Source: an uncultured Omnitrophica bacterium
GTDB taxonomy: Bacteria > Omnitrophota > Gorgyraeia > JACQQV01
Assembly: GCA_947085655.1 (NCBI GenBank)
Contig: CAMTXH010000014.1
Location: forward strand, 9,825-73,824
Reading direction: 5' to 3'
DNA: 64,000 nt
Under the pieces are notes generated by a model. That model ran no database searches and was not told the origin of the DNA. It saw only the letters and a list, made by a program, of their open reading frames with translations. The position numbers and the translations under genes were made by a program. Below, piece after piece: positions 6,768 through 60,271 of the stretch; position 1 is the first letter of the stretch, and every line of letters starts with the position of its first letter.

Positions 6768-9700
6768 ATGAAGAACAATCTTCTTGATCATAACCTGGAT
6801 GTCGCACGAATAGAGGAGCGGGACACCTCTATCCAGAAGTGGCAAACCCCTCGGTTGAAGCCGATTCTGGGGGCTTTGGCGCTTGTGGTTGCGGAGCTCT
6901 TTTTCGTGACACAGGTCGCCTGGGCCCTGGACTTGAATCATATCAATGCCTTCAAACGGCAGTTCCGGCAGCGGACCCTTGAGATGCAACGGATGATGCT
7001 TCCGCAACAGATGGATCGGAAACGGCAGGAACAGCAGGCGGCCCTTGACCGGAAAAACCTTGTGATTGAGAACTTCGGCAACACCGACTCCTCCTTCTTG
7101 GCGCTTGCGGATGTGGAAAGTCAGCCGCTCACGGAAGATTCGGTTCCGCGGCCGGTCTACCGGCTGGGGGAGGAGGAAAAGGATGACCGCAAGGTCATTC
7201 AACTCGCCCGCGGTCCCTTGGTCGGCGTTGAAGTCCTTGGGCGGACGACGGACGAGGCGGGTTTTGGCCATGTGACCTTACGAACCGAGGACGGCGCTCT
7301 GAAAGATGCCACCATCGGCTCTTCCTTATTTACGAAAGTGCCCGCCAAAGAGAAAAAACCGGTTGCGCCGGGAACCTATCTTGCCGAGGGCCTTGCCGGA
7401 GGAGCAGGTCTCCTTGAAGCGAGGGAGACTTTGGGCGGAGAACTGATTACGAGTCTTTCCCCCATCCTTCATATGAGGGAAGAGACACCCGAAAAAGCTT
7501 CCTTGCGCGAAACCATTCAAAGGCAAACCCAAGTTGCCGAATCAGAAACCGTTTTACCCGAAACTTCCAGTACCCTTCCGGTTGATATTGACACATTCAA
7601 AGACGAATACGGGCAGATTCCGGTGATCGATGCCCGGACCGGCAAGGCGAAGACCAGTTTTGAAAAATACATCGACAGTCTCTCCGAACTCTTCCATGCG
7701 GCAGGCCGCGCCGCCCTCAAGGCATTCCTCGAGGAGGCGGAGGAACTGGAGAATATCGAAAGGACCGATCCTGAAGCGGCGCGGATCGCCAAGGCCCACC
7801 TCACAGGAAAACGCGAACGGGACGGCCAAGAGCCACCGAACCCCGGCCAGCAGGATACCCCGAGAGACAGATTCCAATTCTCCAGTTCGGGCAACGCCCA
7901 GTTTGACGCCTTTCTCCAGAATCTGACGGAAGAAATGGAGAGGCGTCTTGCGGAAGGCCCGGAGACGACCAAAGATTCCTACACGTATGTGGCGAAAGAG
8001 GTCGGAGTTAAGTTTGATGCGGACGGGAATGTGGTCTCGACCTATACCCGTTATGTGAAAAAGACCTTCACCCTCCACCGCGGAGAACTCCGACTCATCG
8101 GACGGACCACCACAACCAATTATGAGAATGCGGACGGCACCACCGGCACCAAGGTGGAGATGGCCAAGTTCGGCTATGATGACCGGGGCCGGCTGGTGAC
8201 GCGGGATATTGAAATTCTCCTGAACGGCTTTGTCTACGACGAAGACCTGGAGAGAGTGACCGGACCATTTAACAATTTCCGGATGACGCTCCACCAGCAA
8301 GCGATTCGGGATGAGGAAGGCCAGATCGTTAAATTCATCTCTGTCTCCACGGTCGGGGACATCGAAAACCGCTACGTCCTTGAAATCGAAGAGCGCGACA
8401 CCGCCTACCAGAAGACCCGGTGGAAAGAAACCACCACCGTCACGAATCTCCGGACCGGAGAGGTCCGTACCACCGAGACCGAAGGACACGCCACCGGCTT
8501 TGACGACCAGGGCCGCGCCACCGGCTTTGAAATCAACGAACATGTCTTCGGCGGTCAGGATGATTACTTCCGGACGATCACGATCGAAGGGATCGTTTAC
8601 GGCAGAGACAACGAATGGGTGTCCTTCCGGCGGACCATTGAAACGGATGGCTTTGTCGGATTGCCGGACGGCGGCGGGGAGATGGTGCATCGGCGGGAGG
8701 TTTATGATCATTGGGTGGATTCCGAGACGGGTGACGCGATGATCACCACGAGAGTGTATGAAAACGGCGTATTGATTGACACCACCACTTACCGTCAGAG
8801 TGAGATGCCCGAATATATGGCCCTTTACCTGGACGGCCGCTTTGTCGCCCTGGCTCCTCTTCTTGGGATCAATTTCGAAACCTTTGTCAACGGCACTCTG
8901 GATGCCCAGAACTTCCTGACCGCCATGGGCATCAGCATGCCGCTTGAGACGCTGCTGGGTCTTACCGGAGACAGCGAGCTTGCGGCCGCTTTTGCCCAGA
9001 TGGACCCGGATGCAGTGGATGCGCTGGTCGCCGGTGCGTTGATGGCGCTTCTCTTTGAGGTGGTTAAGACTTACGCCGAGAATGTGGGACAGGATATCGC
9101 GGATGAGGAAGCGGAGAATCGGAGGACAAAGGTTATCAATAACTTTGTCGACAGGATGCCGGATCACCTCAAAGCGGCGGCACGTCAAATTGCCGAAAAC
9201 CTCTTTGACAATCTTGCAGACGTTCTGGCCGATATTCAGCAGGATCCTGCCAAGATGGATGCCCTGATCGGCCGCTTAAGGGATGCCGGTTTGACGGGCA
9301 ATCTCTCCAAGGTCGAACTCCGCTCGATGGGTTATACCGAAACGGTGATGTCCAGCACAAGCGACATCATCGAAAGGCGGACCGTTATCTTCGAATATGA
9401 CGAGGAAGGACGCATCTCCCAATCCCTTGAAAGGGTCCACCGCTTCGGGAGGGACAATGACGGAAAGGTCATTGACCAGACCTACAGCATCGAGCGCTCC
9501 GATTACCGCTACAGCGAAAACGGGGTCCTGATCGGCTATCGCGAAACCCTCATCGGCGTGAATGAAAACGGCGAAGTGACCCCCGGATTGAAAGTCGAAC
9601 GGGATGTCACGCCGGAATACGGCCCGGATGGCCGGCTCATCCGGATGACCTCGGTCAATACCTACAGCATCACCGATGAAAGAAGGGCGGAAGTCCAGGC

Positions 9701-12700
9701 CGGGATCGATGCCATTGACAGACGGGTCGCCGAAATCAAAGCGAAACTAAAAGGGAAAGTCGGTTATAAGGAACTCATCAAACTCCGGAACGAACTGAAG
9801 GTATTAGAAGAGCGGAAAAAGAGACTGGCAGCCGAGCGGGATGCCGAGCCCTTTACCCGGAAAACGGTTCAGGACCGGTTTGAATATGACGAGCAGGGGA
9901 ATGTGATCGGATACCGGCAGATCACGCGCGATGCGGAAGGGAACGTCGTCGATCATAACGAAGTCTCCGGCATCTATATCCATCCGGTCACCCAAAATGT
10001 GGTGAGGCAGATCCGGACCACCTATGTCCGGGACGGGGTGACGCTGGAAAAACCGGAGGTCCGGACCGAGTACAACAAACAGTACGACATGCGAGGCCGG
10101 CTCATCCGTCAGACGATTGAGCAGGATGGGAAAACGTTCGTCGAAGCATTCAAATATAATCGCCTCGATCAACTGATCTGGAGCCGGAATCAGCAGGGAA
10201 TCACCTCCAATTATACCTATAACCGAAGCGGCCAGGTGACCGGCTATGAGATGCACTTCTTTGAAGGGGAGACGAAATACGTCAAAGTTTACAATATCCG
10301 CTATGACGGATTCGGCCGGAAAGTCGGCGAAACCCGCCGGGCCTATATAGAAAATAAAGATGTGAAGGGCTGGCAGACAACCACCGTCACCTATGGGTAC
10401 GACCAACTCGGCCGGATTGCCTGGGAAGAGACCCACAGCGTCTTCAAGGGCAACACAAAGAAAGGTGACCACAAGGTCACCATCAAGGAGGGGTGGCGGA
10501 CCACCTACACCTACGGGCCCAACGGACAGGAAAAGCGCGAAAGGAGACTCTATTATGACCAGGAGATAAAACGGGGCTTCTGGGCGAATGTAGTCCACAA
10601 TCTCTTCGGCGGGTTTGTCTTTGATGCGATCGCAGAAATCTTCGAAGCGTTCGGGTGGGAGAAGGGCGCCAACTTTGTCCGTCAGATTACCCCGATTCTT
10701 CAGATGGTCGGCATTATGATCGCTGCCATACTCGCCGCGCCCTTCTCCGGAGGCCAGTCGCTCACCTTCGGCATGATGCTTGGGAACGCCCTTTTTGTGG
10801 CGGCCGTGACCGGTGCAGCCGCCTTCATGATGAATGTGGCAAACGGCATGTCCGTGAAAGATGCCCTTATCGCCTTTGCGAAGGGGCTTGCCCTCGCCGT
10901 TGTCACCGCGGGCCTCATGCAGGGGCTTGAAGCATTTGCCAGCGTCATCGATTCCATAGCGAGACTCGGGTGGGACATCTTGACCACGATTCCGAAACTG
11001 ATCGGCATCGCCCTGAAATTTGTGAAGGATGTCGGCACAAAGATTTATGATGCGCTGAATACCGCCTATACAAAGACTCTCCGGAAATTCATCGAGAAAT
11101 TCGGCGGAACCGCAGGGGCGACCGGTGGAATGATCACCCTTTCAACCGCCGGAAAGATTATGCAGGATGTGGTCCGGCAACTTGTGACCGCCGCCTTCAT
11201 GCAGATTAAGTTGCTCCGGGATTCCGACACCGCCAAGCTCCTCACCCTCTTCGCCCTCGGCGCCTACTTCGGAAATGTGGTGAATAGTTTCATCCTCCCG
11301 ATCGGACAGGAGATGATCCAGGGGAACAATCCGGAGGATATGGGTTATGCGGTCTATGCGCTTTATGCCTTTAACGTCGGGCTTCAGGCCTCTGGAGGCG
11401 ACTTCCTGAATCTTTTCCGGAATGCGGCGGGTGAACTGTCCGCTGTTGTCAGTAAAGGGGCCTTTATCGCGCAGTCGCTCTATCAGGCCCTTCAGGACCA
11501 GCTCCTTGCGGAACTCGGCGAAGCGCTCAAGCCGGATGTGATCCTCAAGACGGATGATTACGGAAACGTTCTTGAAAAGAAAAAAGGCGACCTTTCTCTC
11601 GGGGACAACATCTTAATTTCGATCGCCCGTTCCCTGACCGGCTACGAGATGTTCACCGCCATCCGCCACTTCACCTTCGGCAAGGGCCCCTTGATTGAAA
11701 AACAGGCGACCCCCGGCGGAAAATACCAGACTCTTCAATTCAATACCTTCGGCGATTTCCTGAAAGGCCGCGCCTCCCACATCGCCTTCTGGAGCGGCTT
11801 GCCGGATCCGGCGGATCCGAAAAAACTCATCTTCGGCTCCCAGCAGATGGCGATCAGCCGGCTGGGCGGTCAGACCCAAATTCAATACTTCAACAGCCTC
11901 TTTGAGGGGGGCGCAAAACCGTTCCGGACCGATCTCCTCAATCCGGGCGGCAAGTCCACCATTTCCCTTCATACGTATAAGCCGGACGGGACACAAGTCA
12001 CATACCGGACTGATTTCTTCCAAAACAATAAACCGGTTGCGACGGAACTTTATAGCGAAGATCACACCGTCCGGATCAACCACCTGGATAACACGGTGAC
12101 CGTTGTCGGACGCGGCGTCATACCGATACCGATTTACCCGATTTTCCCGTTTGTCCAATTCACATTCCCTCAGGCCATTGCCAATACCCAGCTGGACGGT
12201 CCCTTCCTGAGGATTCAGGGGAAGAACGGGGATATCGCGACGTATGACTTGAATAAAGTTATGGAGGGATGGGGGGAGAACATCGTTCCTCTGACAACGG
12301 CCACGTTTGACAAAAAAGGACAACCGACCTTTACCTATCATCCGGAAGGGCTTTCAGAAAGGACCTTTTCCTCCGAGGCCTTCCGGAATCAGCTTCCTGA
12401 AGCCCTCCGGGACGTGGAAATCACCAGGGACCGGCTCGATATCCGCTTCGGCACGCAGGTTTATGTTTATGCGGATAACGAGAAGAGCAAACTTCTCTTC
12501 ATCCACGACCTTGCTTCGGGATGGACGCTGGTGGAGGGACGGGAGAAAAACGATGTTGATCTCTATGTGAGTGCCGCAGGTGGGCCAAAGTCGGTCCGTC
12601 AATCCCTGCCGGAACTGTTCAAGCATATTGAACTGAATCTTAAAAATATCCAGATGCAGCAGACCGCCGCAGGACCGCTTCTGACTATTTTTGACGCTGT

Positions 12701-15700
12701 CAAGGGACAGGGAATCCTCTCGCTGGATCTGGAGGGAGGGGAACTGGCCGTCTCCTTCATCCATCCGCAGGGCCTTGAGATCGCCCTCGGTAACCAGACG
12801 GGGCAGGTCCTGCATGAGTGGAACGCGGCGCATCCTGAAAACCAAATTGATCCGAACCGCTTGGATGCGAATGCGGCAAAGAATCTCTTCAGTTTCTTCA
12901 GCGAAAAACTGAGCCAGCTCCAAAATCCGGATATGGATATGGCGGAGCGGGAGGTGCGGGTCAACCAGATCCGGCCGCTGGTTCAACTGCTCATTGCCAG
13001 GATGGGTGAGTTGGAAGGGCTTCTCGGAAGCGATGAGATCCAGACTCTGAAGAATAGCATAACCACCTTCTATCAAATTGCCATTCAGGTTGTGGAATAT
13101 AAGATAAGTGCCGTCCAAAAGACCATTTCAATCTTGAAGGAAAATGCAACCGGCCCCGGGGCTGCGGATTATCAGAACCATCTCCAAAAACTGGAAACTC
13201 AATTGGTTCAGGCGACAAATGCACTGACCCATTTGGAGGACTCCATCGATCAAAACCATTTTGATGCGGCGGATGTATTCCTTTCAAACGCGATGAACCT
13301 TCCGAGTCTTCTGACCCTACGGAGTGAAGCGGCGGGACTTCTTTACAAGCAGGGCGGGATCCAAGAGGGTAGAGTCAATGCCCTCAAGACCCTTTTGAAA
13401 CTCTATGAAGCCGAATTGAAAGAGGCGAGGAGCACAGCCGCTCCGGATACGACACGGATCGAGGATTTAACCAAGGCGATCTCTTACCTTAATTCCGCCA
13501 TCAACACCGGCCTGATCAGTCCTGAACTGCAGAATATTCTTTTGACTCCCCAGCGGAGAGTCCGGCTTCTTTTGTCACAGGCCCTTCCGGAACTGCTGAG
13601 GACCCAGGCGGCAGGAGGAGATATTACGAAACTAAAAGCAGACCTCCTTGCGAAGGCGGAAGAAATCAGTCCGGCATTCAGGGAGAGACTGGAAAACGTC
13701 ATTCGTATTTCTGCCGGCATCACCAGTCCGGAAATGGAGAAACTTTCTTCCGAAGCCCGGGCTGAAAGGGTTGTAAACATTACCCGGACCGAACTCATTC
13801 CGGCGGTGTTGGAGTTGAACCGATTCCTCGAGACGCAGGGGTATCTTTTGTATGCGGTGCCGTCTGCGGACGGCCGCAGGGTGGAAAGCCGTGTTCTGGA
13901 TATCAATGAAATCCGCCGGTACAAAATCACCCTCAACGGGAAAACGCATGAATTCCGCGTCTTCTTTGTGACCTATCCGGGGGCCGACTCGGGTGTTCCC
14001 GGCGGCGCCCTCCATGATCTTGAGACCCGGCTCAGCCATTACGGATACAGCATGGGGGATTACAATGTGGTTCTCCAGGATAACCTTGGCCGGTTTGTGG
14101 AAGTGATCAACGACTCAACCTTCAGGGATGTGGAAGGGCAGCGCCTTGAGGGCTTGGTCGCGGGCCAAGCACTGACCGTGGCAGGGTATCAGGTCATTGC
14201 AAACCTCACTGCAGACCACGAAGTGGGTCATGCGGTCGAGCGGCTACTCGGACATATTGATCCAACGGATGCCCCGGCACAGGAGACAGCCGCCTACTTC
14301 CGGGAATTGGCCGGCGCCGAAACATTCCAAGAGGCATGGGGATCGCTTAAGGATCTCTGGGGGATGGCCAAACATGGTCCGGAAGGGGCGCCTCATACGA
14401 TTGCCGCCCGAAACGTCTTACGCGCACTTTATACACGGCTGGCTCAAAAGGAGGGGGGAGACTTTAATGACCTCTCAACCCATCCGAAATTCCAAAGGGT
14501 CCTGATGCGCCTTGCGGAGGCGAACCTTGACGGATTCCGGTCTCTTATCGGAGAAGGGTACGAGGCCCACTTTGGCAGGGCATTGGTCCAGCCGGAACTT
14601 GAAGAGGGCTCTACCATCCCGAACCGGCCGGTCAGTCTTGAGGCGGTTGGGCTTGCGCTGAACACAGCGGACGACACCTTCATCACAAGGGCCGAAAGCG
14701 CCTACAACCGGCTCGGGGCATTTACCGACGACATTATTACTGCAATCAACAATAACGATTTGGATGCGGCCAAAGGGCTTCTCCAGTCCTCTGGGGCGTT
14801 TGTTACCGACATAACCGCCTTCTTCAACGAGGTCAGCTCGGTGATGGACGCGCTGAGTCATGTTCCCTCCAGCATCTTCGGAGAGCAGATGTCTCCGGAA
14901 GAAACGGCAAATCTGAGCCGGACCCTTCGTCAACTCGGGGATATTGTTGCCGAAGAGGAACTGACGCTTTCGCAAGCCCAGCGCAGCCCAACGCTCCGGA
15001 TGACGGATAGCGATTCTATTCCTGTGGCCGCGGTGGTGAACGCTGTGAATGCGGCAGAGGTGATCCATGAAGATGACACCATCACGAAACCGGGTAGTGT
15101 CAAAACAGCCGACGGCACATCGGTTAACTATAACGAGCACCGGCACCTTCAAATCCAGAATAACGACACCCAGACCCTCACAACGATTGACCGTTACTTC
15201 CAAGGGGAGAAACTTGTCTACCTTCAAGTGAGCGTCAAGGATCTGGTCACCGGCCGGATCACGAATTTCGCCTATACCGGAACGATGGAGTTGAACAAAT
15301 CGGGCGGGCTTAACCTGATTGATGCAAAAGTGTTCAGGACCTACACGACCCTCGCGACCCTGAACGGCGTCCGGCAAGAAGTTCTCATCGAAGAGATTTC
15401 CATTATAAAGGATAACGAACTCATCAGCTCGAATCAGGTCCTGAAGAGTCTCGAAGGGATTCCCCTTGGGACTTTGGATCCGCAAGAGCTCCAGAATCAA
15501 TTGAACGGAGTGGATGCCTCCGGAGCCGCTCTCCGGTTTACCGCGTTGGATGACCCGAAGAATCTCGGGGAGATCGAGGGCCTTAGGGGAAGAGAGAAAC
15601 TCCTGACACTTTATGAAGTGACCCGGACGGTTGAGACAGAGGAAGGGCCAAAGACAGAGACCTTCCATGTCCTTGCCAATGATGATTTCTCCGAGCAGTT

Positions 15701-28051: not shown

Positions 28052-28095
28052 CGAAAGCCGGGTGAACTAAAAATTCATCCGGCTTTTGTTTTCCT
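28052..28095. terminator. Putative rho-independent terminator after the 7,085-aa gene
   Basis: Inverted repeat AAAGCCGG (28054-28061) and CCGGCTTT (28079-28086) with a 17-nt loop, followed by TTTGTTTTCC. Lies 27 nt after the stop. Confidence 0.35.
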
Positions 28096-28186
28096 TAAAA
28101 ATAAACAAAGTTTCAAATTGAAACAAAGTTTTTTAATGTAAATATTTTAAAATAAACATCTTAAAATGTTAAACGAAACAAATTCT

Positions 28187-46559: not shown

Positions 46560-46565
46560 AGGAAC

Positions 46566-50892: not shown

Positions 50893-50947
50893 GGCAACCA
50901 CTTCTAACATCTTTATAAAATCGTGAAATAAGGAAAAACGCCAAAAG

Positions 50948-53900
50948 ATGGACCGATTCAGGAAAAATTTCCTTTTACCCTTCAATCTTCTTGCGCTCCT
51001 GGTTACGGAGCTTTTTTTGGGATCCCTCCTCCTGATCGATTCTGCTTATGCTTCCTCCCGTCCTTCCTTTAATACGCTCCGGCCCAGGGCCTCCAAAGCG
51101 CACTCTCCTTTTTTTGATGCCCCCTTTGTTTCGACTCCGAACGATCTTAGGGCGGAAGACGGCGGAAAAAGAAAGAGCACCGAAGAAAGGTGGCGGGAAG
51201 TTTTTGTCAAAGCGCAAACACTCTATCAATTTCTTGATGAAGGCCTTTTCCAGAGGGGGGGCGGAGTAACGCGCCCCATTCCCAATTCGGGAGAGGTCTG
51301 GGAGAAAGTCGTACGGCAACTTGAGAAAATCCAAAAAACCGTCCGGCCTTACGGTGAGGAACAGATATCTCTGAGCATTCAAGAAATACTGAAGGCCCTT
51401 TACCATTACAAATATGAAAGCGGCGCGCCGGGAGGAGATATGACCAGCATTTTGATTGCGGCCCACTCCCGGGTCTCAGTTGAACTTCTACCAAGAATCA
51501 AAGCCCTTGCCGGAATCCGGAGACTTGAAGATATCGTAAGGGAGGATTTGTCAAAGACGGAGGAGATTGACCGGCGGCGGCTTCCGGAACTCCCCGATTG
51601 GGAAAAACTGGAGGAGGAAGGACAGCTTCAAGACGCCTTCATTGTTGTTTCTCTTTTGGCCGGAAAGGGAAGCCGTTTTCATGTGGGAGAAGAGAGTCCG
51701 CCGAAAGTGGTGTATCCCATCGGGAATGAACCCCTTGCTTGGTATACGCTGCAAGGAATCCGGGATCTCCGTCATGAAGGGTTTCCCACCTTTACGATTG
51801 GAATTGTTGGGGGTCATCCCACCCCGGATGGCAAATCCGACCGCGTCATGGAAAAAATCGGGACAGGGTACGTGGACCGCTATGTCCGTCAGTCGGTCCA
51901 GCGCGGTTCCGGCCACTCCGCTTTCTTTGCAACATATGCGATTCCGAAAACTTACCCCGGATACGTGATTGTTACGTCAGGAGATGTAGTGGTTCCGAAG
52001 GAGGCGCTGAAACTTTTGATTCGGGAACACCGGCGCTCGGGCGCTGCTCTTTCCATTCTCACCACCGACCTTGAGAATCCTCAAGGCAAGGGGCGAATTA
52101 TCCGAAGGGAAAACGGCATCATTGACCGGATTATGGAGCAGTCGGATATCGACCAAGTCATAGAGGAGGGAAAGACCGTTACTCTTGCAGACGGAAAGGT
52201 GCTGAGCGGCGAAGAACTCCGCGCGATTAAGGAGATCAACCTGGGTGTCTATGCTGCCAGAGCGAAGACATTTTTCGCAGCGCTCCGGGAAGTCGAAAAC
52301 GACAAACGGTTCGAAGAGTGGTATGTGACGGATGTGATTGCGGAGTTAAGGAAGCAGGATCAAAGAATCGAGGGAGTCCGTTTCTTGAAGGCATCCGATA
52401 TCCGAAAGCTTTCAGGGGCAAACGATATTTCGGAGTTCAAAAACATCGTCTCGGAATTTCTTGAGGAACTTTTGTTTCCGGATACGGTGGGGCGCATTAA
52501 TGAGATTCTGACCGATGCCTTTGGCGGCCTGGGAGAGGAGGCGCCGCTTCAGGCCCTGAACACCGTCCTGACCGCAGCCCGGGTCTATCAACATCTTCCG
52601 CCGAAGGATGGCACCAAAACATCGGACGACATCTTTCCAGAAGTGGTCTCCCGCGCGGCCAAGGTCTCAAGCGATACCATACAATTCCAGGCAGCGCTTG
52701 AACGGGAGCTTCAAGCCGCTTTTCACCATGCGCAGGATGGCGGCATCAGGGAGGGGTTCAAAAGATTGGTTGAGCTGGGGCAGACGGATATCGGAGATCT
52801 TTCGCATTGGGTCCGTAACCGGATTCTCACCCGGAAACTCCGTCATCGGAATGTGATTCTCCACGGACGGCTCACGTCCGGAGAGATTACCATCGGACCG
52901 GAAGTGGACCTGAGCGATTTTAGAGGCGGAGAGATTGCTGCGGGTACCCAGATCACCGGAAAAAGCAAAATCGGCCCCGGAACACACCTCAGCGGAACCA
53001 TCCATAATTCCGTGATTGCAGAAGGCGTCCAGATTTACCGGGGACGGGAAATCCGGGATACGGCGATTGAGGAAGGAGCGGTGGTTGAAGAGAGTAAACT
53101 CATCAATACCACTGTGGGGAGAAATGCCTACCTTGAAAACGCCCAGGTGAGCGACTACGATTTGGAAGAGAATGTCCGGGTGATTCATGCCTCCCTTTCG
53201 ATGGACGGTGAGAGTTCCTTTGGAAACGGCGTTGAAATCCGGACCGGCCCCGAGAAAGAGGGAAAATGGGAAGTCCTTGCCTATGACGGACTCACATGGA
53301 AAGAGGCAAAAGAGGTCATCACCCGGCGAGCGGACACCGCCTTCCTGACCGGCTTCCGGGAAAAGGTCGGTCGACATGTTCAGGAAGTTGCTTCCAGAGG
53401 AGGCCGCGTGGGGAGGGGAGCTGTGATTGACCGGACACCGGTTCTCAAGAATGTGAGGGTGGGGCCGTTTGCGCACATTGAAAACGCCAGGGAAATCCGG
53501 GACGCCTCTATTTTAAGCACGAAGCAATTTCCGACGCATGTCAACTCCGGCGCCATTATCCGGCATGCGATTGTCCAAGAGGGAAGTTACGTCGGGGAGC
53601 ATTCCAATGTGAGTCATGCGATTCTTTTGAAGCACTCCGGCGCTGCAGATGGCGTGAAGGTGGAAGAGTCGTGGATTGCCCCGCATTCCATCATGCGGTT
53701 CGGACATGTAGTCGCCTCTTCCATCGGGCCTTTTGTCGGAAAAAACCACCCCTCGATTTTGATTGCGGTTCAATGGCTTGAGGGGAGGGGGAATATCGGA
53801 GGGCAGCATACGGGAAGTAACCACGCCGGAACCGGCCCAACCTATGTAGCGTGGTATCCCAAATTTGCATTTTTCGGAACCAATACGGATGTTCTTTATC

Positions 53901-55915
53901 CTTTTAGGGCCGCCACCGGCCTTATTGTGGGTGCGAGTCTCACCCTTTCTCCTGAGGAAATCGGTCCGCTTCCGGACGAAGAATCAGTCCATCCTTATGA
54001 GCAGAAAATGACCATTCCCTCCCAGGAGATTGACTTTCCTTTCTCGGTGATCACAACCTCCGCCAACCCGAGATGGAATGAGATCCTCCCCGGCGGAGGC
54101 CTTTATCTTCTCCCTTACTACTTTGCGCGCCTTGAATCCAACCACCGGCATATCGTCCGACAGAAGGGAACGGAGGATGAAATCGATACCCGCGTCTTTA
54201 CCCCGGAAGTGATTGACGAAATGATTAAGGCAAGGGATCGACTCACCCGCCCGCCGGTTTCCGGGAAGCCGAAAGGAGACGATGCCCTTTACAGCGAGAG
54301 AGACTATCCGGGGCTCGGTAAAAGCATCATGACCGAACAGAGCCGGCAGAAAGCGATCAAGGCCTATGACCTGTACATTCTGTACCATATCCTCAAAGCG
54401 TTCAGGAACCGTCTCAGCCAGATTTTCCCCCATCGTCCCGAGGAGGCGCTCTTTTCGTCTCAAAACTGGCGTGTGCTTCAAGGGACCCTTCTTTTGAAGA
54501 CGGACGACGAAGCTTGGGAACATGCCCGGGGCATTTTGGAGGAGCGTTTCGGAAGAAAAATCCACCGCTGGGACAAAAAATTCGTGTTGAATCTTCTGAA
54601 ACAACTACAGATGCTCGAGAATCAATATTACAGCGGCATCCTTGACCACAAGATGAGGGAACGCGTTCGGCTGATGAAGATGTTCGACGAAGAGTTTGAC
54701 AAGATCTACATTCCGTTGAGTGAAGTGGATGCCCTTCAACTCCTTCACCGGGACTTTGAGATGGGAACTTCGGAAAATAGACGGATTCTGGATGCCGTGG
54801 CCGCCCTTCAGCGCTCTGCCGACGGAGGAGAGAAAAACAACTTCTTGGGTCTGGTTGCCCTCGGAGCAAACGCCTTTGAAGGGGGAACCCCAGACGACCA
54901 ACTCCCGAGTCTCCGGAGGATGCTTGAGCCGGTCGCAGAGTTAATTGCCGAAGGAAAAACATTCCTCCTCACACACGGAAATGGCCCGCAGGTCGGAGAG
55001 GAAGCGGTTCGGGTGGAACTTGCCAAAGAGGCGGGCGAGGCCCCTTCGATGCGGCTCCCTTACATTGTAGCCAACACCCAGGGCTCCATGGGAAGCATGA
55101 TTGCGCTCACGCTCCGGAATTTGCTCAAGGAGCGGGGTGCTGAAAAAAGGGTCGTTTACCTTTTAACCCACGTTGTGGTGGATCCGGAAGACCCTGCCTT
55201 TCAGGATCCGACCAAATTCATCGGGAAGGGGTATAACCGGGGAGATTCTCTCTATCTCGAACAGGAAAGAGGATGGACCTTTAAGGAATATCAGAACGGG
55301 ATCTGGCGCCGGGTGGTTTATTCGCCGGCTCCCCGGGAAATTTTGGAAGAAGAGATGATCAACGGCCTTTTGGATAAAGGAACGATTGTCATTGCAGGAG
55401 GCGGCGGCGGGATTCCGGTGTTTCGGAAGGGAGATGGAACGTTGGAGGTTGTTGACCATGTTGTCATTGACAAAGACCGGACGTCGGCCCTTCTGGCAAG
55501 TAACATTGGGACGCACCCATTCGTTATCTTGACAAAAGTTCCTCAGGTCTTCCTTCATTTTGGGACCGAAAGACAAACACCCCTCTCCCACTTGACATTG
55601 GATAAGGCGAGGCAGTATTTGGCGGAAGGACACTTCCCTCCCGGAAGCATGGGCCCCAAGATTGAAGCAGCGATTGATTATCTGGATAATTTTGGTTCAG
55701 AGGTCATCATCACCGACGGCCCCCATCTGCGCGAGGCCCTTGAAGGAAGGGCGGGCACCCGGATCGGCTGGCCCGTGGCCAAAGATGGGGGAGAAAAGGG
55801 AATAACACTTCAAAGTCTTCCCCTTTTCGATCTCCTGCCCCATCTTCCCAGTGCAACCCCTTCCCTGCACGAGATACAGACCCCCGCCGAAACAGCCCTC
55901 GGAAACGGGGTGTAA
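50948..55915 (+). CDS. Multidomain protein (1,655 aa): N-terminal leader, sugar-nucleotidyltransferase-like domain, left-handed β-helix hexapeptide repeats, a helical middle and a C-terminal carbamate-kinase-like domain
   Basis: ATG at 50948 is 12 nt after AAGGA. Leader LLALLVTELFLGSLLLIDSAYA...TLRPRASKA. Nucleotidyltransferase glycine motif IVVSLLAGKGSRF. Hexapeptide repeats run from about 52880. Carbamate kinase hallmarks are LVALGANAF, LLTHGNGPQVG, VIAGGGGGIPV and IDKDRTSALLA. Confidence 0.75.
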   Translation: MDRFRKNFLLPFNLLALLVTELFLGSLLLIDSAYASSRPSFNTLRPRASKAHSPFFDAPFVSTPNDLRAEDGGKRKSTEERWREVFVKAQTLYQFLDEGLFQRGGGVTRPIPNSGEVWEKVVRQLEKIQKTVRPYGEEQISLSIQEILKALYHYKYESGAPGGDMTSILIAAHSRVSVELLPRIKALAGIRRLEDIVREDLSKTEEIDRRRLPELPDWEKLEEEGQLQDAFIVVSLLAGKGSRFHVGEESPPKVVYPIGNEPLAWYTLQGIRDLRHEGFPTFTIGIVGGHPTPDGKSDRVMEKIGTGYVDRYVRQSVQRGSGHSAFFATYAIPKTYPGYVIVTSGDVVVPKEALKLLIREHRRSGAALSILTTDLENPQGKGRIIRRENGIIDRIMEQSDIDQVIEEGKTVTLADGKVLSGEELRAIKEINLGVYAARAKTFFAALREVENDKRFEEWYVTDVIAELRKQDQRIEGVRFLKASDIRKLSGANDISEFKNIVSEFLEELLFPDTVGRINEILTDAFGGLGEEAPLQALNTVLTAARVYQHLPPKDGTKTSDDIFPEVVSRAAKVSSDTIQFQAALERELQAAFHHAQDGGIREGFKRLVELGQTDIGDLSHWVRNRILTRKLRHRNVILHGRLTSGEITIGPEVDLSDFRGGEIAAGTQITGKSKIGPGTHLSGTIHNSVIAEGVQIYRGREIRDTAIEEGAVVEESKLINTTVGRNAYLENAQVSDYDLEENVRVIHASLSMDGESSFGNGVEIRTGPEKEGKWEVLAYDGLTWKEAKEVITRRADTAFLTGFREKVGRHVQEVASRGGRVGRGAVIDRTPVLKNVRVGPFAHIENAREIRDASILSTKQFPTHVNSGAIIRHAIVQEGSYVGEHSNVSHAILLKHSGAADGVKVEESWIAPHSIMRFGHVVASSIGPFVGKNHPSILIAVQWLEGRGNIGGQHTGSNHAGTGPTYVAWYPKFAFFGTNTDVLYPFRAATGLIVGASLTLSPEEIGPLPDEESVHPYEQKMTIPSQEIDFPFSVITTSANPRWNEILPGGGLYLLPYYFARLESNHRHIVRQKGTEDEIDTRVFTPEVIDEMIKARDRLTRPPVSGKPKGDDALYSERDYPGLGKSIMTEQSRQKAIKAYDLYILYHILKAFRNRLSQIFPHRPEEALFSSQNWRVLQGTLLLKTDDEAWEHARGILEERFGRKIHRWDKKFVLNLLKQLQMLENQYYSGILDHKMRERVRLMKMFDEEFDKIYIPLSEVDALQLLHRDFEMGTSENRRILDAVAALQRSADGGEKNNFLGLVALGANAFEGGTPDDQLPSLRRMLEPVAELIAEGKTFLLTHGNGPQVGEEAVRVELAKEAGEAPSMRLPYIVANTQGSMGSMIALTLRNLLKERGAEKRVVYLLTHVVVDPEDPAFQDPTKFIGKGYNRGDSLYLEQERGWTFKEYQNGIWRRVVYSPAPREILEEEMINGLLDKGTIVIAGGGGGIPVFRKGDGTLEVVDHVVIDKDRTSALLASNIGTHPFVILTKVPQVFLHFGTERQTPLSHLTLDKARQYLAEGHFPPGSMGPKIEAAIDYLDNFGSEVIITDGPHLREALEGRAGTRIGWPVAKDGGEKGITLQSLPLFDLLPHLPSATPSLHEIQTPAETALGNGV
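51630..52350 (+). other. Nucleotidyltransferase (GlmU or RmlA N-terminal-like) domain
   Basis: The LAGKGSRF motif matches the G-x-G-[ST]-R-[LMF] nucleotide-binding loop of sugar-1-phosphate nucleotidyltransferases, with an α/β pattern downstream. Confidence 0.45.
52880..53770 (+). other. Left-handed β-helix (hexapeptide-repeat) region
   Basis: Repeating [LIV]-G-x-x-x-x hexads: ITIGPEVDLSDFRGGEIAAGTQITGKSKIGPGTHLSGTIHNSVIAEGVQIYRGREIRDTAIEEGAVVEES... and VLKNVRVGPFAHIENAREIRDASIL...GAIIRHAIVQEGSYVGEHSNVSHAIL. Confidence 0.5.
54835..55770 (+). other. Carbamate kinase-like (amino-acid kinase family) domain
   Basis: Motifs VALGANAF, LLTHGNGPQVG, IAGGGGGIPV and VIDKDRTSALLA closely resemble the ArcC carbamate kinase signatures. 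Confidence 0.6.
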
Positions 55916-55921
55916 TCCCGC

Positions 55922-58900
55922 ATGATCCGGCGTCTTATCTCCGTTATCCTCATTGAAACCTTCCTATTGAGTTCCCTCGGCACAGAATTTGTACGGGCCG
56001 AGCCGGTCATCTTTTCCCAGATGTTGCTCAGGGCCCGAAGCGTTGCCAGCGACGGCTCTTCCCGCCAGGAGCTCACTGACTCCCTCCGGACTGCAGACTC
56101 AATCGAAACGCCCCAGGATGTTCCCGCGGAGACCCCCTTCGGAAGTGAAGCAGAGCTCCGGAGGAAAATTTCGGGCCAGACCTTTACGCCGATTAGAGGC
56201 GGTGCCCAGATCGAAACCGTTTATCTCAGCCGGGATCTTGCTTTGTACGTTCCCAGGTTCACCGGGGCACTTTATTTAAGCGATACGGCCCGGTCGGAAA
56301 TAGATAAAAATCCTTTTTTGAAATTTTCTTATCAGTTGGCCAATCGGCTTGGATTCCCCCTCGCCATATCCCTGAAACAAAAAATCAAGTCGGCTATCCA
56401 ACAGGTGCGGGAAGATCTCGTTGGTTCAGATCCGGTCGGCCCAGCCCTTTTACAGAGCTACCGGCTGGCGGAGGGATTGGGGCCGCTGGTCGATCCCTTT
56501 CGCGTTCTGTGGGATGTCTCCATCAAAACGAAGAAGGGGAAGGTTGTGGATTTGCCTCTTGTCATTGTGAGGGAAAGAAGTAACACCTTTCTCATCGACG
56601 ACCTGAAAAGACTGGAGAACTCCGAAGAGGCAAGACAAAAAATCGAGGAGGTCTTTCGTCTTGAGGAAACCCTTTGGGAAAAGGGGATTGTCAATCTGGA
56701 CATCCTTTTCTTAAGAAACGCCCGAACCCGAAACGGCAACGTTGTCCTGCGGGATTTGGGAAATCTGACGCAAGATGGGGCGCATGTCCTTCTCCTCTTG
56801 GAGCGGCTTCACACCGGCGGCTTCAGCCGGAGATTTCATCCCATTGAGAAAGGGGCAAGGAGGATTTCGCGATGGGTCTCGCCCGAGCTCGGGACGTATT
56901 ACAAACGCCGGGCCTACGAGGTCTATTCCGCCGAAAACTTTCTCCGTCACTGGCCCTCCCCCATTCCTTCCGCTTCCGTGTCGGACGGCGGGGACAAAGT
57001 GCCGGAAGAAGGCAAACAGATCCCCCGCTGGACTATTCCGCGGGCCGCTTTGTTAGGTTCCTTCATCCTTGTTCCCAGCGTTTATCTGTCCGTCTCTCAT
57101 TTTTTGGAAGGGTATGCTTTTTTGAGAACGCACTATACCTGGCAGACGGATGTAACAGCCGGCGCATTGATTGTCGGACTCTCTGACATGTTGGGCCAAT
57201 GGATGGCCTATCGTTCAAAGGGCGTCCCCATTCTTAAGAAACAACTCGTTCTGGCCGCGGCGCTCGGAGGTTTGTTCGGATGGACCTACGGGGTTTTTTA
57301 CCACTGGATTGAGCCGTTTTCTCTTTGGAGCCGGGTGGGACTTGCCGCTTTCATTGGAAGCGCCAAGGGGGCTGTGTATGCCCTCATGGTCGGAAAAATC
57401 AAAATGAGTTCTCTTCCCCGTTTCCGAGACCATTACCGGACGAGACGCCAGGTCGAGAAATTCGTGACAGTGATGGCGTTTGAAATACCGCTTCGATTTT
57501 TGAGACATGTCATGATTCAGGGATGGGTGGACCCTTTTTACCGCCAGATTGTGAGTTTTGCCAGTAACGCCATTCTAGCCCCCATCGGCGGATGGATTTT
57601 TAACCGCCTCCAGGTGCCCCTTCCCGGTTTGGTCCAATTTCTGGAAAATACCCTTGCGCGACTGGGGATTGATGTGAGGACGAAAAGGGCACAGGATGGG
57701 GGGCGTCAAGTCTCTTCGGCCGAAGTGGCCCGGGAAGTGGCTGAGGCGGCGCGGGAGGAAAAATGGAAAGGCGAAAGTTTTATGAAAAGCCTTTTCATGG
57801 GCGAGTTTCGTCCGGAACTCCTTTCCCCGTATCCGGTGCAGGATCCGGTCGACAAAGCGGTGGGCGATGCCACTCTTGCGGGACTCGAGAGCTTCTTGAA
57901 GGAAAACGTTGACCCGTCACAAATTGACCGCAACACCAAAATCCCCCAGGATGTCATCGATGGCCTCTTCGCCCTCGGCGCCTTCGGCATGAGAATTCCC
58001 AAGGAGTACGGGGGGCTCGGGCTTTCCCAGACCAATTATTTGCGGGCGCTTCAGCTTACGGCAAGTTACAGCCCGATCGTGTCGGCCCTTCTCTCCGTGC
58101 ACCAGAGCGTCGGGCTTCCCCAGCCGCTTAAAATCGTTTATGCAGAGGCGCAGAAAGAGGGGGATAGGGCCATCATCGAGAAGACGCGGCGCCAGATGCA
58201 GAAATACTACCCGGAAATGGCCACGCATGCCCTTTCCGCCTTTTCCATCACCGAGAAGGAAGCGGGCTCCGATCCTTCAAAGGCCTCTTTGCGCGCGGAA
58301 CGTGCGCCGAATGGAAAAGGGTGGATTCTGAACGGGAGGAAACTCTGGACGACAAACGGGCCGATCGCGCGCTACATCCTCGTCCTCGCCAGAACCCCGG
58401 ATCAGAACGGCAGACCGCAGCTCACCGCCTTTATCGTCGATACGAACTCCCCGGGACTCCAAAGAACCCGGTTGGAATTTTCAGGACTACGCGGCATCGA
58501 AAATGGGGAGTTATTGATGGACAATGTGTATGTCTCAGACGAGGATGTTTTATGGAAGGAGGGGAAAGGACTTAAAATCGCTCTTGCAACGCTCAATACC
58601 GGCCGCCTCTCCATCGCCGCGATCACCCTGGGGACCCTGAAGCGTTCTCTGAATCTTGCCCGCGGGTACGCCAGCCGGCGCATCCAGTGGGGGAAGCCGA
58701 TCGGCCAGCACGAGGCCATGGCCCAGAAAATTGCGGGGATGGCAAGGACCATCTTTGCGCTGGAGGCGGTCCTCTGGCATGCCTCCCTCCTGGTGGACCA
58801 GGTCCCCGAGGAACAACTCGATATCCGGCTTGAGTCCTCCGCGTCGAAACTGGAGACCACGGAGCTGGGATGGCGCATCATTGATGACTTGGTGCAAATC

Positions 58901-60271
58901 TTCGGCGGATTGGGATATGAAACGGCAGATTCAAAAGGGGGGCGGGGAGAGCGCCCCATCCCGGTCGAGCAGCTTTTCCGGGACTTCCGGATTACACGCA
59001 TCTTTGAGGGGACCTCCGAAATTCAGCACCTCTTCATTGCGCGGGAAGCGACCGATTTCCACTTCAAACGCGCAAAGACCCTTCTGAATCCGAAAGCCCC
59101 CCTCTCTCAAAAAGCGGCGGCTTTCCTGCGGGTGGGCCTTTTTTATCTTGCGTGGTATCCCAAACAGTGGATTCCCCGGCGGCTTTTCCTGAAGGGAGAG
59201 GAACGGTATCTTGCCCGCATGAGCCAGCGCCTGGCGCGTCATACCTTCCATCAGATCCTCCGTCATGGGCCGGGACTTGAAAGGAGGCAGTCGGTTCTCT
59301 TTCCGCTTGTCGATATCGGCGACAAACTGTATTTAAGCGCTGCCGCCCTCGCAAGAGCAGAGTCGCTTAAAGGAAAGTATCCGAATGCGGTTGCGTTGGC
59401 AGAGCGTGTCGTTAAGGAAACCCATCATGCCCTCAAGGGCCGGTCTCTTTTCCCGAGTTTAGGAATCCTCGACCGGGCAGAGGAACAGAACTATCAACTC
59501 GCCCAGCGCGTTCTCGCCGGAGAATACGCATGGCTTGAGGAAGGAATCATTCCGGATCCGGAATTTCTTCCGGATGAGGCGCTGCGTGAGGTCCTTCACT
59601 CCAACGATATCCCTCCCCGGCGCGCCCGCGCCAGGGACGAACTCCTCCGCCGGCAGGCGTCGCGGGATGGGGGAGAGAAGGACAATTTTATCCCTTATGC
59701 AGAAATCGAGGAAGCGCTCAGGTCGCTGGGCGTCCCGATTCAAAGGTCTTCGGATCCGGTCAAGGGATTCATCCGGTTTGACGCAGAAGGGACGCTTTGG
59801 GTCGACCCCTTTGTCGTGGATCATCCCGTCCCCCGCGTCTTTTTTGAAAAAGGCCTTCTCCCGGCCCTTCAGTTTGAAAAGCTTCTTTTATCCCGTTTTG
59901 GGTTTGGGAAGGAAACAGGCGCGGGCACTGAGGATCAGGAGTGGACCCTTGAAATCCTCGGGCTTCAGCCGTTCACTCAAGGAATCGTTTCGCTTTCTGA
60001 AGAAGAACGTGGGTTCATTCAAGAGTGGGTCAGTGCACGTGTTACAGAGAGTCCCCGCGAGGACTTTTTGATGCTCCGGCGGCTTTTGTCCCTTGCCGAA
60101 TGGATCGAGCAACCCGAAATCCAAGAAGGTTTTGTCCGGGATTGGCTGGAGCGGGCCCGCTCGCCGGAAAATCCGGATCGCAAGCCGGATGGCGGGAGAA
60201 GGATTTTTTTCCACGACGCCATACATCCTGCCGTCATCCAGAGACCCGTTGCGGTTGAGAGCGGCGTATAA
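55922..60271 (+). CDS. Membrane protein fused to an acyl-CoA dehydrogenase (1,449 aa): N-terminal leader, unknown domain, polytopic hydrophobic block, VLCAD/ACAD9-like ACAD core and a C-terminal helical extension
   Basis: ATG at 55922 lies 6 nt after the upstream stop. Leader ISVILIETFLLSSLGTEFVRAE. Hydrophobic block about 57040-57400. ACAD motifs: FMGEFRPELLSPYP, IPKEYGGLGLS, AFSITEKEAGSDPS, GWILNGRKLWTTNG, YETADSKGGRGE...LFRDFRITRIFEGTSEIQHLFIARE. Confidence 0.75.
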   Translation: MIRRLISVILIETFLLSSLGTEFVRAEPVIFSQMLLRARSVASDGSSRQELTDSLRTADSIETPQDVPAETPFGSEAELRRKISGQTFTPIRGGAQIETVYLSRDLALYVPRFTGALYLSDTARSEIDKNPFLKFSYQLANRLGFPLAISLKQKIKSAIQQVREDLVGSDPVGPALLQSYRLAEGLGPLVDPFRVLWDVSIKTKKGKVVDLPLVIVRERSNTFLIDDLKRLENSEEARQKIEEVFRLEETLWEKGIVNLDILFLRNARTRNGNVVLRDLGNLTQDGAHVLLLLERLHTGGFSRRFHPIEKGARRISRWVSPELGTYYKRRAYEVYSAENFLRHWPSPIPSASVSDGGDKVPEEGKQIPRWTIPRAALLGSFILVPSVYLSVSHFLEGYAFLRTHYTWQTDVTAGALIVGLSDMLGQWMAYRSKGVPILKKQLVLAAALGGLFGWTYGVFYHWIEPFSLWSRVGLAAFIGSAKGAVYALMVGKIKMSSLPRFRDHYRTRRQVEKFVTVMAFEIPLRFLRHVMIQGWVDPFYRQIVSFASNAILAPIGGWIFNRLQVPLPGLVQFLENTLARLGIDVRTKRAQDGGRQVSSAEVAREVAEAAREEKWKGESFMKSLFMGEFRPELLSPYPVQDPVDKAVGDATLAGLESFLKENVDPSQIDRNTKIPQDVIDGLFALGAFGMRIPKEYGGLGLSQTNYLRALQLTASYSPIVSALLSVHQSVGLPQPLKIVYAEAQKEGDRAIIEKTRRQMQKYYPEMATHALSAFSITEKEAGSDPSKASLRAERAPNGKGWILNGRKLWTTNGPIARYILVLARTPDQNGRPQLTAFIVDTNSPGLQRTRLEFSGLRGIENGELLMDNVYVSDEDVLWKEGKGLKIALATLNTGRLSIAAITLGTLKRSLNLARGYASRRIQWGKPIGQHEAMAQKIAGMARTIFALEAVLWHASLLVDQVPEEQLDIRLESSASKLETTELGWRIIDDLVQIFGGLGYETADSKGGRGERPIPVEQLFRDFRITRIFEGTSEIQHLFIAREATDFHFKRAKTLLNPKAPLSQKAAAFLRVGLFYLAWYPKQWIPRRLFLKGEERYLARMSQRLARHTFHQILRHGPGLERRQSVLFPLVDIGDKLYLSAAALARAESLKGKYPNAVALAERVVKETHHALKGRSLFPSLGILDRAEEQNYQLAQRVLAGEYAWLEEGIIPDPEFLPDEALREVLHSNDIPPRRARARDELLRRQASRDGGEKDNFIPYAEIEEALRSLGVPIQRSSDPVKGFIRFDAEGTLWVDPFVVDHPVPRVFFEKGLLPALQFEKLLLSRFGFGKETGAGTEDQEWTLEILGLQPFTQGIVSLSEEERGFIQEWVSARVTESPREDFLMLRRLLSLAEWIEQPEIQEGFVRDWLERARSPENPDRKPDGGRRIFFHDAIHPAVIQRPVAVESGV
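57780..59070 (+). other. Acyl-CoA dehydrogenase domain (N-terminal α, middle β, C-terminal α) of VLCAD-like type
   Basis: Conserved ACAD catalytic-region motifs, including the FAD/substrate loop SITEKEAGSD and the C-terminal IFEGTSEIQ segment where the catalytic Glu normally lies. Confidence 0.65.

Follow-up and report, generated by a model that had tools for sequence, protein, structure and literature searches.

Cysteine-free, leader-bearing modular giant proteins with a recurrent Asp-Gly-Gly junction motif in an Omnitrophota-type genome

Are the giant genes of Omnitrophota and ultra-small symbionts read out as one chain, or are their products cut into pieces? The question is a standing puzzle; it has been suspected in print that Omnitrophota giants are processed, and missing cleavage-site information is said to block their analysis. 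We address it with a 64,000-nucleotide stretch of DNA from an uncultured Omnitrophica bacterium (contig CAMTXH010000014.1, positions 9,825 to 73,824; hereafter the window), which carries five consecutive giant genes, G1 to G5. The locus is small enough to study, and in it a short junction motif brackets complete enzymes and travels with exchanged cassettes. G1–G5 form a lineage-specific family of cysteine-free, leader-bearing modular giants, in which G2–G5 and their relatives are built of exchangeable cassettes and a sequence-specific junction. Judged from the sequences, our best reading, though no more than an even call, is that G2–G5 are leader-targeted polyproteins processed at double-glycine-type sites. 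These features make the question of one chain or many testable and give a rule for dissecting larger giants.

The window holds 11 genes, u1–u4, G1–G5, d1 and d2, all co-directional on the + strand (Table 1). The five giant open reading frames (ORFs), with the sizes and spacing given in a preliminary description of this DNA, were reproduced by ORF listing and translation; u4 and G1 are separated by 1 nt and the subsequent gaps are 231, 6, 212 and 6 nt. GC content is even along the window (0.49–0.58) and an Rfam scan of it returned zero families. Checked for frame-disrupting errors and chimerism, the giant frames are intact and gap-free in independent assemblies. Three Logan assemblies from other sequencing runs match window positions 36617–60735 with 2–6 mismatches and no gaps or indels. 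In an independent 63.5-kb Logan contig G1 is called as 7,085, G2 as 6,100 and u4 as 904 amino acids (aa), and G2 has 6,100 aa in two Logan assemblies.

G1–G5 contain no cysteine in 17,678 residues, where about 133 would be expected at the pooled frequency of the neighbouring genes (P ~1e-58). The coding frame of these genes has 0 TGT or TGC codons; the two remaining frames have 265 and 810. The Cys content of u2, u3, d1 and d2 is 0.4–1.1%; u1 and mature u4 are Cys-free as well, the sole Cys of u4 lying in its signal peptide. Homologues in other genomes have 0–2 Cys per 900–2,256 residues, and the single Cys of two leader-bearing proteins (P0004 and L017_1244) sits in the signal peptide. The d1/d2-type genes that adjoin homologues have a normal content (0.4–1.5%). 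Because remoter giants with one domain in common with G5 (P0016, P0019 and P0020) do have Cys, its exclusion is a trait of the G family and not of giants generally. Avoidance of cysteine is known to mark exported proteins, as shown in Gram-positive bacteria (PMC2823432).

All five proteins share an N-terminal leader, as the preliminary description had claimed. It consists of a basic n-region, a hydrophobic helix with the pattern E/Q-[T/S/A/L]-F-[L/F/V], an acidic residue and a small-x-small site, which is of AxA type (AWA in G1, ALA in G2, AWA in G3, AYA in G4 and VRA in G5). In G2–G5 and their relatives the element [L/F]-L-R-x-[R/K]-[A/S] (LRPxAS type) and a first D-G-[G/S/A/N] lie 10–35 residues past the AxA site, and this first DG site is present in almost every family member. 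In G1 the helix and AxA site are present and the LRPxAS...DG extension is missing. The leader is also found in P0003, P0004, P0006, P0010, P0015 and P0017 and in L017 and L018 genes; clusters of transmembrane (TM) helices occur in G1, G2 and G5. A similar leader (LLRTFLF...ALADF..DTLRPDKTR) was seen in a protein of >955 aa with 10 Cys, encoded at L008 20597..23464 (CAZCCH010000001.1, a metagenome-assembled genome, MAG, labelled Planctomycetia). By this sequence the leader type is wider-spread than Cys exclusion.

The motif that recurs within the chains has the consensus [T/S/R]-[A/S]-x-D-G-G-x-[K/R], the third position of D-G-G, a Gly, being G, S or A in the relaxed form. In 15 family proteins (22,928 aa) DGG occurs 38 times against 7.1 expected (5.3-fold), and every other XGG tripeptide stands at about 1x expectation. 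A or S occupies position -2 in 31 of the 38 sites, and K or R is the second residue after GG in 32. G4 and G5 have four DGG each (0.4–0.7 expected), always at a module boundary. The carbamate kinase of G4 is located exactly between DGG 1292 and DGG 1613, a span of 321 aa that equals the size of the free-standing enzyme; the acyl-CoA dehydrogenase (ACAD) module of G5 lies between DGG 592 and 1249. The kinase-like unit, between G5 44 and 355, also exists as standalone proteins of 277–295 aa. Junction positions are kept between orthologues even if the next module differs. GG, GS, GA and GN variants are observed at the first junction site, and such variants are typical of double-glycine sites. The codons of DGG sites vary synonymously, thus selection acts on the peptide, and a role of DGG as a DNA-level recombination site is ruled out.

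We note a second kind of junction outside the window, in an unrelated giant reached via the kinase-like domain (P0020, 5,684 aa). It has 13 copies of [KR][KR]SP[SAG]G (e.g. RKRKSPSG), 200–935 aa apart and between enzyme-sized modules, with a dibasic, kexin/subtilisin-type look. By analogy, giants of this kind may in general have junction grammars specific to their lineage.

The modules bracketed by the junctions are best defined in G4 and G5. The carbamate kinase reported in the preliminary description is confirmed by a complete family match in G4. It scores 276.8 bits with TIGR00746 arcC (positions 5–307 of 309), below the equivalog cutoff of 358, 267.9 bits with the NF009007 subfamily (cutoff 266) and 226 bits with PDB entry 1e19, which it matches end to end (positions 6–312 of 314). 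Since the kinase forms part of a 1,655-aa chain, the profile matches make G4 an ArcC member at domain level only. The claimed acyl-CoA dehydrogenase was likewise recovered in full, the Pfam N, M and C domains in G5 each scoring above cutoff. The module aligns with VLCAD 67–597 and keeps the catalytic Glu motif FEGTSEI (FEGT[SN]EI in the VLCAD/ACAD9 alignment), and on this alignment we assign it to the acyl-CoA dehydrogenases.

Residues 70–350 of G5 gave no sequence-family match. An AF2 model of the G5 N-terminal domain from a 3-sequence alignment was unusable, with a predicted local distance difference test score (pLDDT) of 48; a model of aa 70–350 from a 19-sequence alignment reached pLDDT 86.5 and has a protein-kinase-like fold, for which Foldseek returned AceK (E 6e-6). 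The domain contains two invariant Asp 18 residues apart, the same spacing as between the catalytic Asp and the DFG Asp of PKA. The model thus predicts a protein-kinase-like fold with catalytic-loop and DFG-like Asp. For the adjoining membrane module of G5, an Mpv17/PMP22-like identity was dropped as it found no support.

Relatives of the G genes are found in Omnitrophota-type MAGs or on metagenome contigs, the closest being in Candidatus Omnitrophota MAGs. Where a source record names an organism it is a MAG, in most cases labelled Candidatus Omnitrophota/Omnitrophica and in some Planctomycetia, Verrucomicrobia or Lentisphaeria; these relatives place the locus in Omnitrophota indirectly. A search of 5.8 billion clustered proteins with G3 returned only G3 itself, and a G5 search found two relatives. 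Exhaustive phmmer of G5 aa 1–600 against 1.84 billion representatives gave 20 matches only, and scanning metagenomes with the shared C-terminal domain yielded a single locus. The database record of P0004 bears the name 'carbamate kinase [Candidatus Omnitrophica bacterium]'. The order G3-like, G4-like, G5-like, d1, d2 recurs in five or more further genomes or metagenomes (syntenic G3/G4/G5-like genes in L004/L006, L005, L017, L018/L019 and L020). Across these syntenic G-type loci d1 is 63–70% identical, and it is 66–69% identical to Omnitrophota homologues. Six of 11 d1-anchored loci in MAGs are titled Candidatus Omnitrophota/Omnitrophica and five Planctomycetia, Verrucomicrobia or Lentisphaeria.

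Comparison of these relatives reveals that the leader, the junctions, the G5 membrane module and the C-terminal tail are kept, while enzyme cassettes are exchanged. In P0004 (Omnitrophota MAG JACQQV01) the kinase-like and C-modules of G5 are joined to a nucleotidyltransferase, DUF4954 and a carbamate kinase, and ACAD is lacking. L018 has an aminotransferase at the place of the G4 carbamate kinase, P0006 has a methyltransferase at the place of the G5 kinase-like unit and ACAD, and in L005 and L020 the G5 C-module sits after carbamate kinase. A homologue of G3 is a 1,720-aa gene on JACQQV010000002.1 (Omnitrophota MAG; 29% identity over 772 aa). On this same contig an IS200/IS605-type Y1 transposase (L004 12164..12730, - strand) lies between a fused G4/G5-like gene and d1; in the window the G5–d1 gap, where L004 carries the transposase, is only 23 nt. 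Two giants, P0012 (3,552 aa) and P0016 (3,150 aa), have at least three tandem G5-type kinase-like domains each; P0012 has 0 Cys yet no DGG junctions.

The C-termini are also shared. A domain of ~120–150 aa is common to G1, G2, G3 and homologues, and chains of the G4/G5 type end in the tail DGGxR...[KR]P[IV][EA]V[GE]SGV, which is kept in relatives. Ends of the form [EG]-S/N-G-V-COOH after [KR]P[IV][EA]V are observed in G4, G5, P0004–P0006, P0017, L018_4550 and L020_1 (...GNGV in G4 and ...QRPVAVESGV in G5). A terminal Val is likewise seen in G1 and G3 and in further carriers of the shared C-terminal domain (homologues in L004, L017 and L018), and G2 ends in ...TKF. The SGV-type tail resembles a class-I PDZ ligand (S/T-x-V), a likeness that points to a PDZ-domain protease or a tail-specific protease as a possible partner. 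The C-terminal signals, like Cys exclusion, the DGG grammar and cassette swapping, had been overlooked in the preliminary description.

How might such proteins work? If G2–G5 are polyproteins, the leader would insert or export the chains at the cytoplasmic membrane. The DGG junction would be recognised, as a site of double-glycine type, by a factor acting in trans, in the simplest case a peptidase that cuts after Gly-Gly, and the chains would be cut into individual units. The lack of Cys would then reflect that the proteins cross, or stay in, a compartment outside the cytoplasm, and delivery to a host cell may be part of this. The PG_binding_1 domain of G2 and the YD repeats of G1 follow the leader and precede the first TM cluster; given Cys exclusion and these modules after the leader, the post-leader parts would be outside the cytoplasm. 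The envelope- or host-contact components would be G1, which has YD repeats and TM clusters and lacks junctions, and the long N-terminal stretch of G2 with its peptidoglycan-binding domain. From the literature on the phylum we infer that the proteins may serve an episymbiont as an apparatus of its envelope or of its interface with the host. More tentatively, and in our judgement possible rather than probable, the DGG and the P0020 RRSPSG junctions would be genuine processing sites, and the released Cys-free enzymes and kinase would be exported and act in or on a host cell. If processing is real, Omnitrophota giant genes would encode polyproteins in bacteria, with a 'cleavage grammar' particular to the lineage, and the junctions would be the first predicted cut sites for Omnitrophota giants and would allow their computational splitting into functional units. 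Should the enzymes really leave the cell, an episymbiont would here be delivering effectors in a new way.

Several observations weigh against processing and export. The recurrent motif is absent from G1, many of the 38 DGG sites sit in homologous proteins and are not independent events, and G2 cut at its DGG sites would still leave fragments of ~2,700 aa. The LSxxELxxIxGG leader consensus (hydrophobic at -4/-7/-12/-15) is absent in the G proteins. Pfam and NCBIfam searches of the window ORFs revealed no Peptidase_C39, ATP-binding cassette (ABC) or any peptidase gene or domain, and as G1–G5 are without Cys they cannot hold an active C39 domain themselves. All the recognisable enzymes of G4 and G5 need ATP, a nucleoside triphosphate (NTP) or flavin adenine dinucleotide (FAD)/acyl-CoA, a poor fit with an extracytoplasmic site. 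Leader and TM calls were made by hydropathy scan alone. Finally, the residues on the N- and C-terminal sides of the leader helix are equally basic, which is compatible with an N-out/C-in anchor. The basic stretch responsible (LRPRAS) renders charge balance silent on leader orientation; of the type-II anchor proposed in the preliminary description, the basic stretch and the helix are seen, but with flanks equally basic the type-II orientation does not follow.

The enzymes need cytoplasmic cofactors, so the modules either face the producer cytoplasm or work in another cell. The former would make the proteins uncut, membrane-tethered multi-enzyme scaffolds with an N-out/C-in helix, a cytoplasmic metabolon and DGG as a flexible hinge. 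This we regard as unlikely, though worth serious attention: the cofactor requirement extends to every identifiable cassette, the evenly charged leader flanks allow it, and Nielsen & Lui describe in Omnitrophota both a 'multi-enzyme metabolic cluster' class and inner-membrane-anchored architectures. A hinge, however, leaves unexplained an 8-residue motif with fixed D-G-G and A/S and K/R flanks, and its occurrence about 25–35 residues past the AxA site in almost every family member. Total Cys exclusion is unexplained for cytoplasmic proteins whose neighbours use Cys normally, and a peptidoglycan-binding domain and YD repeats right after the same leader favour an extracytoplasmic N-terminal part. 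The preliminary description had instead taken the proteins for intact giant surface or coat proteins (adhesins) mediating epibiotic or predatory contact. Size, leader, Cys exclusion, the peptidoglycan-binding domain and the YD repeats agree with that, as does the proposal made in the literature for Omnitrophota giant ORFs (PMC10066038). We nevertheless consider it distinctly improbable. The chains are largely non-repetitive and have no Ig-like, cadherin, dockerin, TSP3 or lectin repeats, the only adhesin-type repeats being seven of ~100 aa in G1; G4 and G5 are strings of mainly complete metabolic enzymes plus a kinase, and genes for a type II secretion system or type IV pili (T2SS/T4P) are absent from the window.

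It is very unlikely that the locus is an Rhs/YD polymorphic toxin system, with G1 as cage and C-terminal toxin and the later genes as cargo or immunity. G1 does have an RHS_repeat match and YD motifs, and YD motifs recur in u2 and u4. The RHS score is, however, marginal and obtained with short tiles only; the YD region is broken up and only ~860 residues long, with 5,800 more residues after it, and the window contains no DPxGL core, no PAAR/VgrG/TcB context and no small immunity-like gene. For an assembly or annotation artefact, be it a chimeric contig or frames open by chance or decayed, we found no supporting point and hold the chance to be negligible, given the gap-free agreement among independent assemblies, the absence of TGY codons from the coding frame only, which indicates selection on that frame, and the presence of homologues of the same architecture in other genomes. 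The polyprotein reading of G2–G5 can be set beside known systems.

The resemblance to giant-gene loci of uncultivated lineages noted in the preliminary description is correct, and specific to Omnitrophota-type relatives. Omnitrophota giant ORFs have signal peptides, TM helices and few domains (PMC10066038; bioRxiv 10.1101/2023.11.21.568195; 10.64898/2026.06.07.730766), and 94% of the catalogued very long proteins of the phylum have a signal peptide and/or TM helices (Nielsen & Lui 2026). G1–G5 share with them the Omnitrophota MAG context, a signal peptide with scattered TM clusters, nearly orphan sequences, few annotated domains over thousands of residues, and many unrelated enzyme domains per chain; G4 and G5 fall into class 1 (multi-enzyme tiling, no dominant repeat). 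They differ in size, at 1.4–7.1 thousand amino acids (kAA) against at least 10 kAA in the Nielsen & Lui catalogue and >30 kAA for the named types of West-Roberts, and only G1 (21.3 kb) passes the Seymour 2023 criterion of an ORF >20 kb. They also differ in standing five in a row and not singly. The Archaeovorin/Dockerin architectures are absent here, no C39, S8, SecA, dockerin or TSP3 domains being found. T2SS/T4P or glycoside-hydrolase genes flank 13 of the 14 largest Omnitrophota giants; neither was found in u1–u4, d1 and d2 of the 64-kb window, where there are only CBM9/CBM30 downstream.

We therefore place the locus, as a smaller-scale instance, among the known very long proteins of Omnitrophota and see in it no new kind of system; the earlier proposal of a candidate undescribed system is not supported, as the locus fits the published class with signal peptide and TM helices or multiple enzymes. 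What appears undescribed is the Cys-free family with DGG junctions and shared leader, and its cassette swapping. Term searches of West-Roberts 2023, Nielsen & Lui 2026 and Seymour 2023 found no mention of Cys exclusion, the leader motif, the DGG grammar or the SGV tail, and those of 10.1101/2023.11.21.568195 and 10.64898/2026.06.07.730766 none of cysteine, DGG, linkers or polyproteins. A search of one literature library found no paper combining Omnitrophota with polyprotein.

C39 domains are reported to be frequent in Omnitrophota giants, and 10.64898/2026.06.07.730766 has a C39 architecture cluster. Like the double-glycine substrates of C39/PCAT transporters, the G proteins have an enriched GG site with GS/GA/GN variants and a conserved upstream element near the N-terminus. 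In contrast to these substrates, the G motif recurs internally between large folded modules and follows a Sec-like hydrophobic leader instead of forming the leader; upstream of DGG we find [LF]LRxRSxAxDGG or polar linker residues. Viral and eukaryotic polyproteins also place complete unrelated units on one chain with a short, repeated, sequence-specific junction, and P0020 shows the same logic with its dibasic RRSPSG junction. The present case differs in being on a bacterial chromosome, and no protease was found in the window. Cysteine-excluded exported giants (TpsA, autotransporter passengers, and RTX adhesins of type I secretion systems) are likewise very large with little or no Cys, and TpsA and autotransporters have an N-terminal export signal; the cargo of the G family, unlike theirs, is metabolic enzymes. 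No TPS domain, NPNL/NPNGI motif, beta-helix passenger, RTX GGxGxD repeat or beta-barrel/translocator was found in the window proteins by Pfam, NCBIfam or motif scan, and identity with a TPS/autotransporter protein or RTX adhesin was rejected, the defining features being absent. Rhs/YD proteins have in common with this locus the YD repeats of G1, u2 and u4, and differ in their DPxGL core and toxin/immunity organisation, of which we see neither; the repeats make up ~12% of G1.

Table 1. Features of the window, with residue numbers of the encoded protein and positions in the window.
Feature	Length or residues (aa)	Position	Strand	Remarks
u1		8..829	+	Pro-, Val-, Lys-rich
u2		836..1681	+	YD repeats
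u4	904	4049..6766	+	signal-peptide protein; stop 1 nt before G1 start; two YD-type motifs
G1	7,085	6768..28025	+	from ATG; 7,091 aa from upstream TTG at 6750
G1 YD/RHS-repeat region	~400-1260	7965..10547	+	degenerate; helical inserts between repeats
G1 TM cluster 1	1307-1384	10686..10919	+	hydropathy scan
G1 HExxH	2484	14217..14231	+	
G1 repeats	~2920-3650	15525..17717	+	~7 tandem beta-rich copies of ~100 aa; family unassigned (tile-versus-protein phmmer)
G1 TM cluster 2	4059-4200	18942-19367	+	hydropathy scan
G1 HExxH	6697	26856..26870	+	
G1 C-terminal domain		27645..28022	+	weakly related to that of G2/G3, 19% identity
Terminator-like hairpin after G1		28052-28088	+	15 pairs and T-run
Promoter-like sites		28118-28216		between G1 hairpin and G2
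G2	6,100	28257..46559	+	
G2 DGG sites	60, 968, 3664, 5948			
G2 DGA-RK variants	87, 316, 4952			
G2 duplicated domain (~210 aa)	84-293 and 313-515	28506..29801	+	each copy begins at a DGA-RK variant
G2 PG_binding_1	1054-1127	31416..31637	+	Pfam 37.5-39.9 bits; PDB 5tv7, 1lbu, 4lpq
G2 TM clusters	3758-3883, 4980-5151, 5381-5399	39528..44453	+	hydropathy scan
G2 C-terminal domain	5949-6100	46101..46556	+	upstream limit is DGG at aa 5948
G3	1,389	46566..50735	+	DGG at aa 53
G4	1,655	50948..55915	+	
G4 DGG sites	71, 597, 1292, 1613	51158, 52736, 54821, 55784		
G4 GlmU-like sugar-1-phosphate nucleotidyltransferase	233-499	51644..52444	+	NCBIfam TIGR01173, 124.5 bits
G4 left-handed beta-helix (DUF4954)	~660-960	52925..53827	+	Pfam PF16314, 96.7 bits
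G4 carbamate kinase module	1293-1613	54824..55786	+	flanked by two DGG junctions; kinase match aa 1303-1606
G5	1,449	55922..60271	+	DGS at aa 44
G5 DGG sites	355, 592, 1249, 1423	56984, 57695, 59666, 60188		
G5 kinase-like domain (AceK/RIO/Bud32-like, atypical)	70-350	56129..56971	+	predicted structure
G5 polytopic membrane module	356-592	56987..57697	+	kept in P0003, P0005, P0006; no Pfam match
G5 VLCAD/ACAD9-like acyl-CoA dehydrogenase module	593-1249	57698..59668	+	domain match aa 655-1152
G5 C-module and tail	1250-1449	59669..60268	+	conserved; sits elsewhere in relatives' chains
d1 and d2	786 and 381	60295..63797	+	CBM30, central domain and CBM9 (d1); CBM30 (d2); conserved syntenic neighbours, Cys normal

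The remaining giants are less readily described: G1 and most of G2 are without recognisable domains, and G1–G3 are largely unannotatable. On tiles of 3,700–3,800 aa G1 gave no Pfam or NCBIfam match, and PDB sequence searches agree. Tiles of 3,000–3,800 aa of G1 and G2 missed the RHS repeats, which tiles of ~700–780 aa found, with nothing else credible; on ~780-aa tiles of G1, RHS_repeat was the only match above the Pfam cutoff (33.3 bits on tile 702–1482, cutoff 22, E 6e-8). The motif YD..G[RN] occurs in G1 at aa 416, 470, 578, 877, 1040, 1106, 1179 and 1211. Of the 'YD shell' of the preliminary description the YD/RHS repeats are thus present, on short tiles only; a closed shell is undemonstrated, and the Rhs core motif (DPxGL or DP.G[LWF]) was absent from every window protein in a motif scan. 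A protein search with G1 aa 1–2500 returned nothing, not even G1 itself, and is a weak null. The HExxH motifs claimed were located, two in number and in G1 only (0.2 expected). They stand in zincin-like helix contexts, ADHEVGHAVERLLGH and FILAVHEIIHTFQH, with no family match, and could mark metallopeptidase modules. The C-terminal domain of G1 aligns with that of G2 and G3 through the common blocks NPE[TA]R[ED]L and LxxAELLKL.

In G2 the most over-represented 5-mer is DGARK (3 against 0.009 expected). The peptidoglycan-binding domain of the preliminary description was found here with both Pfam and PDB matches; the 'hydrolase-like regions' it listed gave no match in Pfam, NCBIfam or PDB. Tiles of G2 of 3,000–3,800 aa returned nothing in Pfam or NCBIfam beyond PG_binding_1. 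An ABC-3C CTD2 match (22.7 bits, cutoff 25) was rejected as chance, and weak TPR matches were treated likewise. The C-terminal domain of G2 is 41% identical to that of G3 and is also present in L004, L017 and L018 homologues; G3 had no family match. Relaxed Pfam searches of the TM and C-modules of G5, the linkers of G4, G3, the N-terminus and post-peptidoglycan-binding part of G2 and the C-terminus of G1 gave noise only.

With terminator-like and promoter-like sites between G1 and G2, and a weaker terminator-like site in the G3–G4 gap, the array is predicted to form probably three transcription units: u4–G1, G2–G3 and G4–G5(–d1–d2). The spacing had been called operon-like; the tight gaps agree with this, but a single unit does not, as the terminator-like sites split G1 from G2 and G3 from G4. 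By its position u4 is possibly co-expressed with G1; it has no Pfam or NCBIfam match. No family match was found for u1 and u2 either. u1 contains a tandem RPIG[LP]P[LE]TA[PR]VDGGG repeat, with two DGG against 0.1 expected, but with A at -3 instead of -2, and a C-terminal LPTEEER motif is common to u1 and u2.

Downstream, the d1–d2 pair is found at 43–70% identity across many Omnitrophota-type MAGs (L006–L016, L018 and L020), with or without G-like genes, and is far commoner in Omnitrophota than the G genes are. Its domain content suggests that it is probably a neighbouring, separate polysaccharide-handling or uptake unit. Further genes often come after the pair: an additional CBM30 gene, a NagB-like gene, one of NTP_transf_4/hexapeptide type and a fusion of a sugar ABC transporter with CBM30.

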